Positions 9,912 through 51,435 of a stretch of 64,000 nt of DNA are shown here, in pieces (the first letter of the stretch is position 1; the number at the start of each line of letters is the position of its first letter). The stretch lies in IMG/VR virus record IMGVR_UViG_3300045521_000059; one strand, written 5' to 3'. The DNA comes from a virus. The notes below the pieces were generated by a model. The model was given only the letters and a program-made list of their open reading frames with translations. It ran no database searches and was not told the origin of the DNA. A program made the position numbers and the translations under genes.

Positions 9912-10006
9912 TGGTGCGGACGGCAGGACTTGCACCTGCACAGAGAGTTGCAAGCTCTCCACTGGGACCTGAACCCAGCGCGTATACTAAATTCCGCCAC
10001 GGCCGC
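9912..10006 (-). tRNA. tRNA-Leu(CAG)
   Basis: Anticodon arm CTGGG-TTCAGGT-CCCAG; long variable arm; encoded CCA; atypical T-loop TGCAAGT; C5.U68 mismatch. Confidence 0.88.
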
Positions 10007-10023
10007 ATTTGAAGGGTTAATAG

Positions 10024-10107
10024 TGGTGTGGGCTACGAGGATCGAACTCGTACTCATTAAGAACCGCATTTTAAGTCCGGCGCGTCTACCAATTTCGCCA
10101 AGCCCAC
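10024..10107 (-). tRNA. tRNA-Leu(TAA)
   Basis: Cloverleaf; loop CTTAAAA; CCA. Confidence 0.92.
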
Positions 10108-10150
10108 AAACTAATAATAGGAACATGATATATAGTGTTTTGTTGTTTCT

Positions 10151-10234
10151 TGGTGCGGCTGAGAAGATTCGAACTTCCACGGGTTACCCCACAGCGACCT
10201 CAACGCTGCGTGTCTGCCATTCCACCACAGCCGC
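10151..10234 (-). tRNA. tRNA-Leu(GAG)
   Basis: CAGCG-TTGAGGT-CGCTG; CCA. Confidence 0.95.
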
Positions 10235-10275
10235 ACATTTCCGCTGATTTATCTATAGCGGATACTCATATGTAT

Positions 10276-10350
10276 TGGAACCGAAGGGTGGAGTCGAACC
10301 ACCGTCTCTGGAGCCACAATCCAGCGCTCTAACCATTGAGCTACTACGGC
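10276..10350 (-). tRNA. tRNA-His(GTG), no G-1, G1.U72, U73
   Basis: CTGGA-TTGTGGC-TCCAG; T-arm GGTGG-TTCGACT-CCACC; CCA. Confidence 0.92.
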
Positions 10351-10393
10351 ACGTTTAATGACTAGCTAATCTTTCTAAGGAATAGCCCGAAAC

Positions 10394-10497
10394 TGGTGGC
10401 AGGACAGGCACTTGATCTCAGCGGATGATCAATCCGTAATCTTTGATTAGTACGCCGACTCCGACGAATGTTACCTAGGATACGTCAGGGCCCTGCC
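10394..10497 (-). ncRNA. 104-nt tRNA-like RNA with no canonical anticodon or T arm
   Basis: Acceptor stem GGCAGGG/TCCTGCC plus A-CCA; internal hairpins GACG/CGTC, TAATC/GATTA and CGGAT/ATCCG. Confidence 0.6.
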
Positions 10498-10504
10498 ATT
10501 TAGT

Positions 10505-10581
10505 TGGTCGGAGTAGCAGGCTTCGAACCTGCGACCTATGGTTCCCAAAACCATCGCGCTACCAGGCTGCGCTATACTCCG
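10505..10581 (-). tRNA. tRNA-Pro(TGG)
   Basis: ATGGT-TTTGGGA-ACCAT; C1-G72; CCA. Confidence 0.95.
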
Positions 10582-10593
10582 AATTCTTCGTTC

Positions 10594-10636
10594 ACGGGCC
10601 GAGCAGCGCCACTTAAGGCAGCAGGTCTCGGCCCGT
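10594..10636. other. GC-rich hairpin inside array 1
   Basis: 10-bp stem ACGGGCCGAG/CTCGGCCCGT with an interrupted inner helix. Confidence 0.5.
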
Positions 10637-10647
10637 TAGTTTAAATT

Positions 10648-10737
10648 TGGTGGGGAGTGGACGGATTTTTACCGTAGCCACTAGGGGACAGGTGTACGGC
10701 CTGCCAGGGTTGTCATACCCTTCTTAACGCACTCCCC
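10648..10737 (-). tRNA. atypical tRNA-Tyr(GTA)-like RNA
   Basis: 8-bp acceptor GGGGAGTG/CACTCCCC plus A-CCA; loop CCGTACA (C33); T-loop TAAAAAT; non-canonical D arm. Confidence 0.6.
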
Positions 10738-10745
10738 GTGCGAAA

Positions 10746-10837
10746 TGGTGGGGGACGGCTAGATTTGAACTGCTTGCCGCATAGGGACTCGGGTTACAAC
10801 CGAGTGACAGAACCGCCCATCCTTATTGGCGTCCCCC
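10746..10837 (-). tRNA. atypical tRNA-Tyr(GTA)-like RNA
   Basis: Acceptor GGGGGACG/CGTCCCCC plus A-CCA; CTCGG-TTGTAAC-CCGAG; irregular T stem and D arm. Confidence 0.7.
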
Positions 10838-10842
10838 GAAAA

Positions 10843-11063
10843 TGGTGGAGATGACCGGGTTCGAACCGGCGATTGTCTTCGGACCTGAGCATTACCACAG
10901 GCTACCTCAATGCTTGAGAAACGCGCTTCCCTACTCGGCCCTCTCTGGCTATTTCGGTGCATCCACAACTCGTGTGCTTGAGATATTTCGAAGACCGGGT
11001 TTTACCCCGGTCGCGTTCTACGTTTTTTGCAACTGCCCACACCGAATCCAGGCGAGCATCCCC
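10843..11063 (-). ncRNA. 221-nt one-piece mini-tmRNA-like RNA
   Basis: GGGGATG/CATCTCC with G3.U70, A73 and CCA; tmRNA-type D-loop CTGGATTCG; T-arm GCCGG-TTCGAAC-CCGGT; helix-2-like pairing; no canonical tag ORF. Confidence 0.65.
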
Positions 11064-11079
11064 AATTAGTATTAAAAGA

Positions 11080-11162
11080 TGGTACGGTTAGAGGGACTCG
11101 AACCCCCACGGTTTCCCGCCAGAACCTAAATCTGGTGCGTCTACCAATTTCGCCATAACCGC
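11080..11162 (-). tRNA. tRNA-Leu(TAG)
   Basis: CCAGA-TTTAGGT-TCTGG; CCA. Confidence 0.95.
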
Positions 11163-11172
11163 ATATTTCTCC

Positions 11173-11294
11173 GAAGAGAAAATGTAATCCGATGGTCGGA
11201 ACGGCAGGATTCGAACCTGCGACCCCCTGCTCCCAAGGCAGGTGCGCTACCAGACTGCGCTACACTCCGAAAGATCGGATTACATTTTCTCTTC
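11173..11294. repeat. 21-bp perfect inverted repeat bracketing tRNA-Pro
   Basis: GAAGAGAAAATGTAATCCGAT (11173-11193) is the reverse complement of 11274-11294. Confidence 0.85.
11193..11269 (-). tRNA. tRNA-Pro(TGG), second copy
   Basis: CCTGC-CTTGGGA-GCAGG; CCA. Confidence 0.95.
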
Positions 11295-11347
11295 TCCGTC
11301 TGGGTTGAATATTTAAATACTCTAAACCCAGACGGATACATTCATTT

Positions 11348-11430
11348 TGGTGCGGCAGGAGAGACTCGAACTCTCACGGTTTCCCAATGGATTTTGAATC
11401 CACCGCGTCTACCTATTCCGCCACTGCCAC
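11348..11430 (-). tRNA. tRNA-Leu(CAA)
   Basis: GTGGA-TTCAAAA-TCCAT; CCA. Confidence 0.95.
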
Positions 11431-50142: not shown

Positions 50143-50256
50143 ATTTATTCCTTTTAAATTAATTTCAAAAATATTGTGTCCTTATTTATACGCAACGTCA
50201 ACATAATAGCGATAAATAAACGAACTCATTTATTTTAAAAAATAGTAAAAAACTAT

Positions 50257-50285
50257 TTGACAATTTGCAGCCAACAATTCATAAA
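50257..50285 (+). promoter_or_regulatory. sigma70-type promoter for array 3
   Basis: TTGACA-N17-CATAAA. Confidence 0.65.
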
Positions 50286-50335
50286 GGATGTAACGAGATG
50301 GACATGGGTCCTTATCCAAAAAGAAAGACTGAAAG

Positions 50336-50410
50336 ATGCGCAACACGAGAACAACATGGACATGTTGGAGAACCTACAGGGGCTTCCCTGGAGGCGGAAA
50401 CATCTGTTGA
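50336..50410 (+). CDS. leader peptide 3 (24 aa) MRNTRTTWTCWRTYRGFPGGGNIC
   Basis: 11 of codons 4-15 are Thr/Arg/Trp/Cys; not in the ORF track. Confidence 0.82.
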   Translation: MRNTRTTWTCWRTYRGFPGGGNIC

Positions 50411-50438
50411 CTCGATGAGTACAGTGCCGCATCCGATG

Positions 50439-50471
50439 AAGCCTCGAATATAAGTTCGGGGCTTTTATTTT
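50439..50471 (+). terminator. attenuator terminator upstream of array 3
   Basis: AAGCCTCGAA-TATAAG-TTCGGGGCTT-TTATTTT. Confidence 0.88.
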
Positions 50472-50485
50472 GTCTAAAATTATAT

Positions 50486-50561
50486 AGGGGTATAGCTCAG
50501 TTGGTAGAGCGACGGTCTCCAAAACCGTAGGTCGCGGGTTCGAATCCTGTTGCCCTTGCCA
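50486..50561 (+). tRNA. tRNA-Trp(CCA)
   Basis: ACGGT-CTCCAAA-ACCGT; CCA. Confidence 0.95.
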
Positions 50562-50566
50562 AATAA

Positions 50567-50743
50567 ATGGAAAAGTCGATGGTAAACAGGCTTATCGATT
50601 TAATGCTAGAAGGAGAAACTTATGAAAAAGTTCTCCAGGAAGCATGGAATAAAATGCAAGAACTTAAAAAACTTGCATTAGAAGACATTGGAAAGAGATT
50701 GCTAATCGGTGAATCCGATGATGTCGATTTTGATCTGGATTAA
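50567..50743 (+). CDS. small acidic hypothetical protein inside array 3 (58 aa)
   Basis: MEKSMVNRLIDLMLEGETYEKVLQEAW...DDVDFDLD; below the track cutoff. Confidence 0.5.
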   Translation: MEKSMVNRLIDLMLEGETYEKVLQEAWNKMQELKKLALEDIGKRLLIGESDDVDFDLD

Positions 50744-50750
50744 TGTAATT

Positions 50751-50826
50751 GCCAAATTAGCTCAGTTGGTAGAGCAGCGCTTTCGTAAAGCGAAGGTCGG
50801 GAGTTCAAGTCTCTTATTTGGCACCA
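50751..50826 (+). tRNA. tRNA-Thr(CGT)
   Basis: Loop TTCGTAA; GCC start; CCA. Confidence 0.93.
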
Positions 50827-50830
50827 AAGG

Positions 50831-50934
50831 TCCGCTATAAAATGCGGATTCCACGCAGCCTAATTCGTTGCGTCATGGCTTTTGGATGGTTGAGCCCGAC
50901 AATCAATCATCCCGCGAATAACGTCGTGAGACGT
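50831..50934 (+). ncRNA. candidate four-hairpin RNA between the Thr tRNAs
   Basis: Four consecutive stems of 5, 7, 10 and 5 bp. Confidence 0.35.
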
Positions 50935-50939
50935 CATGT

Positions 50940-51015
50940 GCCCCCATAGCTCAGTTGGTAGAGCAGTTGATTTGTAATCATCAGGTCGGGAGTTCGAGTC
51001 TCTCTGCGGGCACCA
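50940..51015 (+). tRNA. tRNA-Thr(TGT)
   Basis: Loop TTTGTAA; CCA. Confidence 0.93.
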
Positions 51016-51022
51016 CATTTTT

Positions 51023-51098
51023 GGGCTGAGACTGTTGTAAAGGATAACAGGGACAGAGATCCTGTCTGGCAGGAGTTCAATTCTCCTTCAGCCCACCA
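51023..51098 (+). ncRNA. 76-nt tRNA-like RNA with aberrant anticodon loop (GAT-centred)
   Basis: Perfect acceptor GGGCTGA/TCAGCCC and T-arm; GACAG-AGATC-CTGTC; 5-bp D stem with GTAAAGGAT loop; CCA. Confidence 0.7.
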
Positions 51099-51173
51099 AA
51101 ATCTGGCGTGCGGTTGTTAAAGGATTAGAACCTTTCCCCGCCAGTAAGAATAAACTGGCAGCAATGTCAGTAT

Positions 51174-51247
51174 GGCCTGATGGCGGAGTGGTTACGCGAC
51201 GGTCTGCAAAACCGTTTACCCGAGTTCAATTCTCGGTCAGGCCTCCA
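51174..51247 (+). tRNA. tRNA-Cys(GCA)
   Basis: ACGGT-CTGCAAA-ACCGT; U73-CCA. Confidence 0.95.
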
Positions 51248-51275
51248 CATATAAGAAGTGTATTTACTACACTTT

Positions 51276-51352
51276 GGTCCCGTAGCTCAGTGGACGAGAG
51301 CAGGAGCCTTCTAAGCTCAAGGTCGTAGGTTCGAATCCTACCGGGATCGCCA
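51276..51352 (+). tRNA. tRNA-Arg(TCT)
   Basis: GAGC-CTTCTAA-GCTC; CCA. Confidence 0.95.
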
Positions 51353-51360
51353 TAACATTA

Positions 51361-51435
51361 GTCTCCGTAGCTCAGTGGAAGAGCAATTTCCTCCTAAGAA
51401 ATAGGCCGCAGGTTCGAATCCTGCCGGAGACGCCA
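51361..51435 (+). tRNA. tRNA-Arg(CCT)
   Basis: ATTTC-CTCCTAA-GAAAT; CCA. Confidence 0.95.

Follow-up and report, generated by a model that had tools for sequence, protein, structure and literature searches.

Genes for tRNAs are usually regarded as growth-rate-controlled and otherwise constitutive, and little is understood, to our knowledge, of how individual tRNA levels are set by bacteria and mobile elements. In enterobacteria, the attenuators of ilvGMEDA (Ile/Val/Leu) and thr (Thr/Ile), as well as trpL, hisL, leuL and pheL, consist of a short translated leader with a codon run, a terminator and an exclusive antiterminator 3' of the run, and the pheM leader of pheST in E. coli applies attenuation to a synthetase gene, sensing one amino acid. 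T-box riboswitches bind uncharged tRNA directly, without translation, and the specific tRNA state sets their choice between terminator and antiterminator in cis. Ribosome-mediated attenuation also works in the bacterial order of the presumed host of the element described here, at the trpL attenuator of trpE(G) in Sinorhizobium meliloti (PMC6614838). In Anabaena sp. PCC 7120, the trn operon, with 26 tRNA genes on a megaplasmid, is repressed by TrcR and induced under translational stress (PMC10272220). Here we describe three arrays of tRNA genes in the IMG/VR record IMGVR_UViG_3300045521_000059, of which a stretch of 64 kb (hereafter the window) was analyzed; positions 9,912-51,435 bracket the arrays. 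We consider it likely that each array is gated by a ribosome-mediated (leader-peptide) transcription attenuator, which controls the read-through from the array's own promoter into the tRNA genes.

The window harbors 22 tRNA genes grouped in three arrays, identified by ARAGORN and all found by Rfam as well:

9912-11521, minus strand: tRNA array 1; in transcription order Tyr, Leu-CAA, Pro-UGG, Leu-UAG, Pro-UGG, His, Leu-GAG, Leu-UAA, Leu-CAG
14495-15743, plus strand: tRNA array 2; Ser-GCU, Ser-UGA, Ser-CGA, Gln-CUG, Gln-UUG, Ser-GGA, Gln-UUG, thus four Ser isoacceptors
50486-51435, plus strand: tRNA array 3; Trp, Thr-CGU, Thr-UGU, Cys, Arg-UCU, Arg-CCU

A preliminary description of this DNA had noted the grouping by amino acid, which stands, while its gene counts are corrected here to two Pro genes in array 1 and three Gln genes in array 2. 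All three arrays are preceded by a common layout, comprising an AT-rich stretch, TTGACA-N17-CAT, a Shine-Dalgarno sequence, a short open reading frame (ORF) and a G+C-rich hairpin with a U tract. The succession of promoter-like element, short ORF, intrinsic terminator and tRNAs, as first described, is thus confirmed for each array:

11940-11968, minus strand: promoter-like element of leader 1; TTGACA at 11968-11963, 17 nt, CATTTA at 11945-11940, with an AT-rich stretch upstream
11895-11728, minus strand: leader ORF 1, 55 codons, MTTSAH...LPHLPHLLPLPYLGCGQR...YAN and stop; GAGGA 8 nt before the ATG
11660-11708, minus strand: intrinsic terminator 1; 15-bp stem of 11708-11694 with 11678-11664, about -28 kcal/mol, followed by UUCUUCUUUUG
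14291-14319, plus strand: promoter-like element of leader 2; TTGACA, 17 nt, CATCTT
14344-14436, plus strand: leader ORF 2, 30 codons, MFIQSSQQQSRQSSSSSSNALMCAVTDLNI and stop; GGAG 7 nt before the ATG
14462-14492, plus strand: intrinsic terminator 2; 11-bp stem and UUUUUU, -16.5 kcal/mol, ending 2 nt before tRNA-Ser
50257-50285, plus strand: promoter-like element of leader 3; TTGACA, 17 nt, CATAAA
50336-50410, plus strand: leader ORF 3, 24 codons, MRNTRTTWTCWRTYRGFPGGGNIC and stop
50438-50474, plus strand: intrinsic terminator 3; 12-bp stem and U-rich tail, -16.1 kcal/mol, ending 12 nt before tRNA-Trp

Each leader carries a dense run of codons for the amino acids of its own array. The regulatory run of leader 1 (full peptide, MTTSAHTVQGKVAAVSARVALSRALSALPHLPHLLPLPYLGCGQRAVLATEGYAN) spans codons 28-40 (11814-11776; LPHLPHLLPLPYL) and consists entirely of array 1 amino acids (13/13). 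The run of leader 2, at codons 4-18 (14353-14397; QSSQQQSRQSSSSSS), has 14 Ser or Gln residues among 15, and that of leader 3, at codons 4-15 (50345-50380; TRTTWTCWRTYR), has 11 Thr, Trp, Cys or Arg residues among 12, all exactly as counted in the preliminary description. The match extends to isoacceptors within the window: for each anticodon of arrays 1 and 3, the array's own leader contains one or more readable codons, with CUA, CUC, UUG, UUA and CUG serving the five Leu species in leader 1, and ACG, ACA, UGG, UGU, AGA and AGG serving the tRNAs of array 3 in leader 3. Reading the leader 2 codons by eye, we found UCA, UCC, UCG, AGU/AGC, CAA and CAG, which correspond to all six anticodons of array 2.

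To evaluate the contribution of chance, every stop-free segment of 13 codons in the six frames of the 64 kb (n = 72,439) was scored for codons readable by each array. In this enrichment test, the top segment for each of the three codon sets was the leader directly upstream of the matching array. The best scores were 12, 12 and 10 out of 13, versus background means of 2.3, 1.7 and 1.3, respectively. In a three-by-three matrix of leaders against arrays (binomial scores), the diagonal values were 9.2, 11.8 and 8.6, and no off-diagonal value exceeded 1.4. Chance is therefore excluded as the origin of the codon match in the window.

The codon match is preserved in relatives. We gathered about 25 related loci, working outward from GyrB and from a family marker, a 311-residue protein of unknown function encoded at 12107-13042 between arrays 1 and 2 (46-100% identical among the relatives). 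The order array 1, marker gene, array 2 is kept throughout these loci, and array 3 stays beside gyrB. Homologous arrays lacking codon-matched leaders, which the preliminary description had named as a possible refutation, were not encountered: every complete array of the three types is preceded by a leader ORF with at least 9 of 12 codons for its own amino acids, and then by a terminator. Intrinsic terminators between leader ORF and tRNAs are present in nearly all relatives, and in both the window and the relatives the terminator stem begins 13-31 nt past the leader stop codon. Leader 1 is conserved in 12 distinct leaders from relatives and leader 2 has 17 distinct homologous leaders, while the homologues of leader 3 are found at five loci (L087, L088, L089, L120 and L146). 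The flanks of the leader peptides diverge, and it is the composition of the run, not its sequence, that is conserved, as is seen from the variants:

Leader 1 runs in relatives: LPHLPHLLPLPYL, YHPSPLYPLPLPY, HLPLPLHLLPLPY, LLPLPYLPLPYP, RLIPLSLLPPYP
Leader 2 runs in relatives: QQQQSQSSSSSS, SQSQRSQSRSSS
Leader 3 runs in relatives: RTTCTCWRT, RTWTCWRTC, RTTWWCAR, RTTTTTWTCWR, and also RTTWTCWRT

Array 1 lacks tRNA-His only in L097 and L101, and only the leaders of these two loci are without His codons.

The promoter-like elements are likewise conserved. In a pattern search, TTGACA-N17-CAT occurred five times in the window, versus 0.86 expected, and three of the occurrences are those in front of the leaders. 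The -35 TTGACA of leader 1 is kept in place and the element of leader 2 is conserved in L090, L091 and L092, and the element of leader 3 is conserved in L087, L120 and L146. The conserved -35 hexamer and spacing suggest that all three elements function as promoters.

Two relatives carry, besides the three array types of the window, four extra arrays each: a contig of Mesorhizobium sp. SP-1A (G001:C2; marker 89% identical) and the plasmid pRlX5 of Rhizobium leguminosarum TP16 (marker 49% identical). Each extra array has a short ORF upstream, followed by a terminator:

Phe with Arg-ACG and Arg-CCG: leader ...IRRRFS... in Mesorhizobium, MRRFRS..GRFSLRRR in pRlX5
Lys (with Arg-CCU in pRlX5): leader ...LKRK... 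in Mesorhizobium, ...NRLKRK... in pRlX5
Glu with Asp: leader ...TEERREDDT... in Mesorhizobium, ...AAEREEDIS... in pRlX5
Asn, Val, Gly, Ala, Met, Ile and Thr-GGU: leader MHSVRAIAINTINVTANMAGGRGIVV... in Mesorhizobium, MHRFVTNAGNNATAAIMAGGVAACVV... in pRlX5

In the Asn-Arg-Leu-Lys-Arg-Lys stretch of pRlX5, the codons AGG, AAG and AAA match the three tRNAs of the array. In both seven-array replicons, the true pairing of leaders with arrays gave the highest summed score of all 5040 permutations. The preliminary description had predicted that arrays for the remaining amino acids would have leaders rich in their own codons, and in these two relatives they do, although weakly in the case of Lys. The Mesorhizobium genome has about 44 tRNA genes in arrays on top of about 48 elsewhere, indicating that the arrays constitute a second, accessory tRNA set.

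A leader-peptide attenuator needs an alternative to the terminator helix, and the candidates for its 5' strand are as follows:

11760-11772, minus strand: leader 1 antiterminator 5' strand, UGUGGUCAGCGGG, 4 nt past the run; its partner is 11697-11685
50379-50386, plus strand: leader 3 antiterminator 5' strand, GGGGCUUC, pairing with GAAGCCUC at 50438-50445 (terminator 5' arm)
14411-14426, plus strand: leader 2 candidate antiterminator 5' strand, GCGCGGUGACUGACCU, pairing with 14455-14470, including AACCCGC of the terminator 5' arm

In leader 1, the 3' strand (11697-11685) coincides with the inner 5' arm and the loop of terminator 1. The duplex has a predicted energy of -24.8 kcal/mol, versus -16.1 for shuffles, and was equaled by two of 200 shuffled sequences. 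Its 11-bp core is paired in all 165 cells of an alignment of 15 sequences, and compensatory changes occur at four of the 11 pairs (as in GGUCAGCGGG with CCCGCUGACC versus GGUCGACGGG with CCCGUCGACC); none of 500 shuffles was as good, and controls with slid strands were 22-52% paired. The terminator 1 helix was not used for fixed-column covariation, as indels shift its register. In leader 3, the antiterminator domain reached -29.5 kcal/mol against -16.1 for the terminator when truncated RNA was folded, two of 200 shuffles were as good in the duplex test, and the relatives retain the complementarity through differing sequences, which together give the leader 3 antiterminator moderate support. 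In leader 2, a GCGCGG core is nearly invariant across differing amino-acid contexts and faces the invariant CCCGC of the terminator.

The switch was examined by cutting each RNA before the terminator 3' arm and folding it with a ribosome placed at each codon. In all three leaders, the terminator 5' arm was paired upstream while the A site lay within the run, and this pairing dropped from codon 41 in leader 1, about codon 20 in leader 2 and about codon 12 in leader 3, the runs covering codons 28-40, 4-18 and 4-15, respectively.

Within leader 2, a 7-bp hairpin (14380-14398, plus strand) arises from the Ser run itself; it is 96.6% paired in 17 relatives with two compensatory pairs. This hairpin may serve as a pause signal for the polymerase, and its maintenance by compensatory changes implies that the codon choice within the run is constrained.

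These features would fit the following model. RNA polymerase would start at TTGACA-N17-CAT and a ribosome would load on the leader ORF. If the run is decoded fast, the ribosome would cover the segment 3' of the run, the terminator would form and transcription would stop before the tRNAs. If charged tRNA is scarce and decoding is slow, the ribosome would stall in the run, and the freed segment would pair with the 5' arm and loop of the terminator, allowing read-through into the array. The products would be the very tRNAs that read the run, and the resulting negative feedback would keep each codon family's decoding capacity at a set point. Leader translation, stalling, the direction of the switch and its trigger are predictions from the sequence, and the proposal that starvation or anticodon nucleases pull the trigger is purely speculative. 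The reading as leader-peptide attenuation, already advanced in the preliminary description, is supported in that its sequence-level predictions hold, namely conserved ORFs with Shine-Dalgarno sequences, runs, terminators and an alternative helix, which covaries in leader 1 and has moderate support in leader 3. Since the runs follow the membership of tRNA genes and not a biosynthetic pathway, tRNA supply is arguably the controlled variable. We also find it plausible, and lean slightly towards the view, that mobile tRNA arrays share a general control principle, in which a leader made of an array's own codons lets the ribosome gauge decoding speed and set the matching tRNAs; seven such homeostats would together cover all 20 amino acids and amount to a second, autonomous supply of tRNAs on megaplasmids of a family present in cultured rhizobia.

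Several results weigh against this model. The codon choice for Pro and Leu, compared with the anticodons present across the relatives, shows no strict isoacceptor match, so the isoacceptor-level correspondence originally proposed holds for every anticodon in the window but is loose across relatives, where it is solid only at the amino-acid level. The Lys leader is weak when taken alone, with two Lys codons only. In the relatives, four of the seven arrays (A0 and A4-A6) bear a second promoter-like element between the terminator and the tRNAs, and attenuation is thus probably not their only control; in the window, arrays 2 and 3 have no room for a second promoter, because their terminators end so close to the first tRNA. 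A scan for E. coli-type sigma-70 promoters called none of the three promoters in the window, whose -10 hexamers CATTTA, CATCTT and CATAAA are off the scan's consensus. The Shine-Dalgarno sequence of leader 3 is weak in the window and stronger in relatives, and this leader is overlapped by a non-conserved ORF of 51 codons.

The structural analysis has further weak points of this kind. The candidate antiterminator of leader 2 showed no covariation among the 17 homologous leaders, and its duplex energy was no better than that of shuffles. When full-length leaders were folded at equilibrium with a ribosome mask, the terminator always formed (P 0.90-0.98), so that the model needs a kinetic, co-transcriptional competition, as in trp. 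Scoring in general whether the terminator 5' arm is paired gave values modestly above those of shuffled spacers (z for the most part 0 to 2.8), since arms rich in G+C find pairing partners almost anywhere; the specific duplex and covariation tests were used instead. The leader 1 stop codon lies 30 nt past the antiterminator strand, and termination without stalling would accordingly need tight coupling between ribosome and polymerase. Lastly, in 21 metatranscriptome runs from ant metagenomes, the assembled contigs covered genes and spacers evenly; such contigs may contain DNA, and RNA 3' ends or levels are not visible in them.

The same structures could serve another signal, amino-acid starvation instead of tRNA abundance, with the arrays belonging to a starvation or stress programme and the leaders reporting charging as trpL and hisL do. 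A stalled ribosome is blind to the difference between low and uncharged tRNA, as established for classical attenuators (PMC1183508), and a short ORF with adjacent Trp codons before the tryptophanyl-tRNA synthetase (TrpRS) gene of the window (described below) would fit a charging sensor. However, more tRNA gives no relief when an amino acid is lacking, which would make such coupling wasteful, and up to seven unrelated amino acids come together in one run, following the grouping of the tRNA genes and not that of biosynthetic pathways. We therefore regard starvation sensing as unlikely. If, on the other hand, the codon match had no regulatory role at all, the short ORFs might encode trans-acting small proteins or RNAs or be low-complexity remnants, with the terminators merely insulating the arrays. 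Attenuator leader peptides and released attenuator RNAs can act in trans in Sinorhizobium (PMC7298713, PMC6614838), and constitutive partial terminators before genes are common. Such a state is hard to reconcile with seven of seven leader-array pairs being matched in each of two distant relatives (rank 1 of 5040 in each), with the top segments of the 64 kb falling exactly at the three leaders, or with the conservation of run composition instead of peptide sequence, and we give it next to no credence.

A switch of reversed logic, in which the terminator would be melted whenever the leader is efficiently translated, allowing read-through, would create a positive feedback of the plasmid tRNAs. 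Such an arrangement is suggested, in the window only, by the 51-codon ORF over leader 3 (50298-50453, plus strand), which has a good Shine-Dalgarno sequence, lies in another frame, stops within the loop of terminator 3 and was annotated as a gene in the source assembly; its translation would open the terminator. This ORF is, however, absent from the relatives L087 and L120. In the conserved leaders, 13-31 nt separate the stop codon from the terminator stem, too great a distance for a terminating ribosome to melt it, and the covarying helix joins the segment after the run to the terminator arm, which is the classical geometry of stall-induced read-through. Reversed logic is accordingly very improbable, if marginally less so than a codon match devoid of function, and attenuation relieved by slow decoding remains the reading that we prefer.

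Although the record is filed as viral, the element looks like part of a megaplasmid-type replicon and not of a phage. The window corresponds to about 67.5-131.5 kb of a 1.0-Mb metagenome contig, and the DNA is present in ant-metagenome runs. Its genes encode GyrB, GyrA, a class Ib ribonucleotide reductase, a ClpB-like ATPase, TrpRS, RtcB, cytosine methylases and an integrase-family protein. The window GyrB is about 55% identical to the chromosomal GyrB of Hyphomicrobiales, and closer relatives form a graded series from 95% down to 60% identity on contigs of 0.2-2 Mb. Homologues of the marker protein occur on the circular pRlX5 (1.32 Mb), Bosea plasmids and the Methylorubrum extorquens AM1 megaplasmid; Mesorhizobium sp. 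SP-1A and Pararhizobium sp. BT-229 carry them on contigs exceeding 1 Mb. The marker had no match in 50,697 phage records, a search of viral contigs with GyrB gave nothing above 49% identity, and neither an HK97 capsid nor a terminase was matched on the Mesorhizobium contig; leader 1 DNA matched phages only at tRNA-Tyr genes. A phage origin was rejected on the basis of the marker, GyrB and capsid/terminase negatives, together with the relatives on pRlX5 and other megaplasmids. The host thus appears to be a bacterium of the Hyphomicrobiales with a large megaplasmid-type replicon. The AM1 megaplasmid was considered as a model and rejected, as its marker homologue is 36% identical, has no adjoining arrays and is accompanied by six tRNAs only.

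Gene order is preserved across the family for a second gyrB-bactofilin-gyrA block and the genes of an extensin-like protein and a lytic transglycosylase (window 43665-50142, minus strand, and 61082-62800, plus strand; L087-L089), and a pentapeptide-repeat protein is also encoded in the window; the replicon seems to carry its own DNA-topology kit. The G+C content is 44% in the window, about 50% in the Mesorhizobium sp. SP-1A contig, 56% in L088 and L091, and 62-64% in pRlX5 and L089. It thus tracks the presumed host, which suggests a long residence in each host lineage.

Other features were noted in and around the arrays. Between terminator 1 and the first tRNA of array 1, the motif TCTTTGA(A/C)AT is found at 11614-11605 (minus strand); it recurs in the equivalent place in L090, L091 and L092 and in the large array of L119 and L143, and could be the -35 hexamer of a second promoter or a processing site. 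The second promoter-like element of the relatives is AT-rich, TTTTTGTTGTTGAC, and is found in loci L116-L119 (Mesorhizobium sp. SP-1A contig 2) and L143-L147 (pRlX5). A second short ORF lies between the leader terminator and this element and is often rich in the amino acids of the array (MRRRRR..., MPEGDDDSDEREREE...). Array 2 contains, between two of its tRNA-Ser genes, an ORF of 67 residues (14754-14957, plus strand) with a weak match to GatB_Yqey (PF02637), resembling a small stand-alone tRNA-binding tail; it is also present in the relative L090, at 3532-3735. A PARP-like protein is encoded at 13400-14272, directly before leader 2. At 52657-56029, 1-5 kb from array 3, the gene for the RNA ligase RtcB is divergent from those for an ADP-ribosylglycohydrolase and a P4 cII-like protein. 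The proximity of RtcB and the ADP-ribosylglycohydrolase to array 3 is compatible with a link to tRNA damage, but proves nothing. Finally, the Trp-containing ORF mentioned above has 22 codons (MCKLEKTRAASTATMNWWRSVN; 24155-24222, plus strand), two of them adjacent Trp codons, and lies about 130 nt before the TrpRS gene (24351-25358; PF00579), with a long inverted repeat between the two. This ORF could be another ribosome-sensing leader, in this case on a synthetase gene.

If the proposed attenuation is true, the speed of decoding would feed back directly on the supply of tRNA, one codon family at a time. The grouping of accessory tRNA arrays by amino acid would then have an explanation, as would the way in which a plasmid with about 45 extra tRNA genes avoids flooding the cell and in which an element can buffer itself against a mismatch with the host tRNA pool or a loss of host tRNAs. 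Being compact, the modules might also be put to use as codon-specific sensors of translation capacity. Homologous loci are available in cultured, tractable strains, R. leguminosarum TP16 (pRlX5), Mesorhizobium sp. SP-1A and Pararhizobium sp. BT-229, and, judging from protein matches, in Sinorhizobium meliloti and Agrobacterium rubi.

In full-text searches of the literature, no account of tRNA genes under leader-peptide control was found. The new point would be a leader-peptide switch whose product is the tRNAs reading its own run; its replicon is not a phage, close relatives have a complete set of seven arrays, and cultured strains are among the carriers. The T-box resembles this system in that a terminator or antiterminator is chosen in cis according to the state of a specific tRNA. 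Unlike the T-box, the leaders here are ORFs with Shine-Dalgarno sequences, and no T-box was matched at the gathering threshold in the window, nor at E<=1 in the three leaders. The enterobacterial leaders share the entire architecture of leader, run, terminator and antiterminator, and some of them sense several amino acids at once, as would those described here. Full-length resemblance to the Rfam families His_leader (RF00514), Trp_leader (RF00513) and Leu_leader (RF00512) was detected, although with scores below gathering (25.3 vs 49, 22.4 vs 41 and 21.1 vs 50 bits, respectively). The differences are that the genes to be regulated are the tRNAs reading the run and not biosynthetic enzymes, that each run comprises two to seven amino acids grouped by tRNA array, and that the setting is a megaplasmid-type alphaproteobacterial replicon. 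The trpL attenuator of S. meliloti responds to one amino acid only and regulates a biosynthetic gene, and we found no sequence relationship between it and the leaders here. In pheM-pheST, a leader peptide likewise controls a translation component acting on the same codon; here the products are tRNAs, and the circuit would close on decoding. The Anabaena trn operon is also an accessory tRNA array on a megaplasmid, silent by default, as our model predicts for the arrays here, and switched on under translational stress. However, it is one long operon under a ribbon-helix-helix repressor, whereas here seven codon-specific switches of RNA and ribosome are proposed and there is no sign of a repressor. 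In mechanism, the multivalent ilv and thr leaders and pheM-pheST come closest, and the nearest functional analogue is the TrcR-repressed operon of Anabaena.

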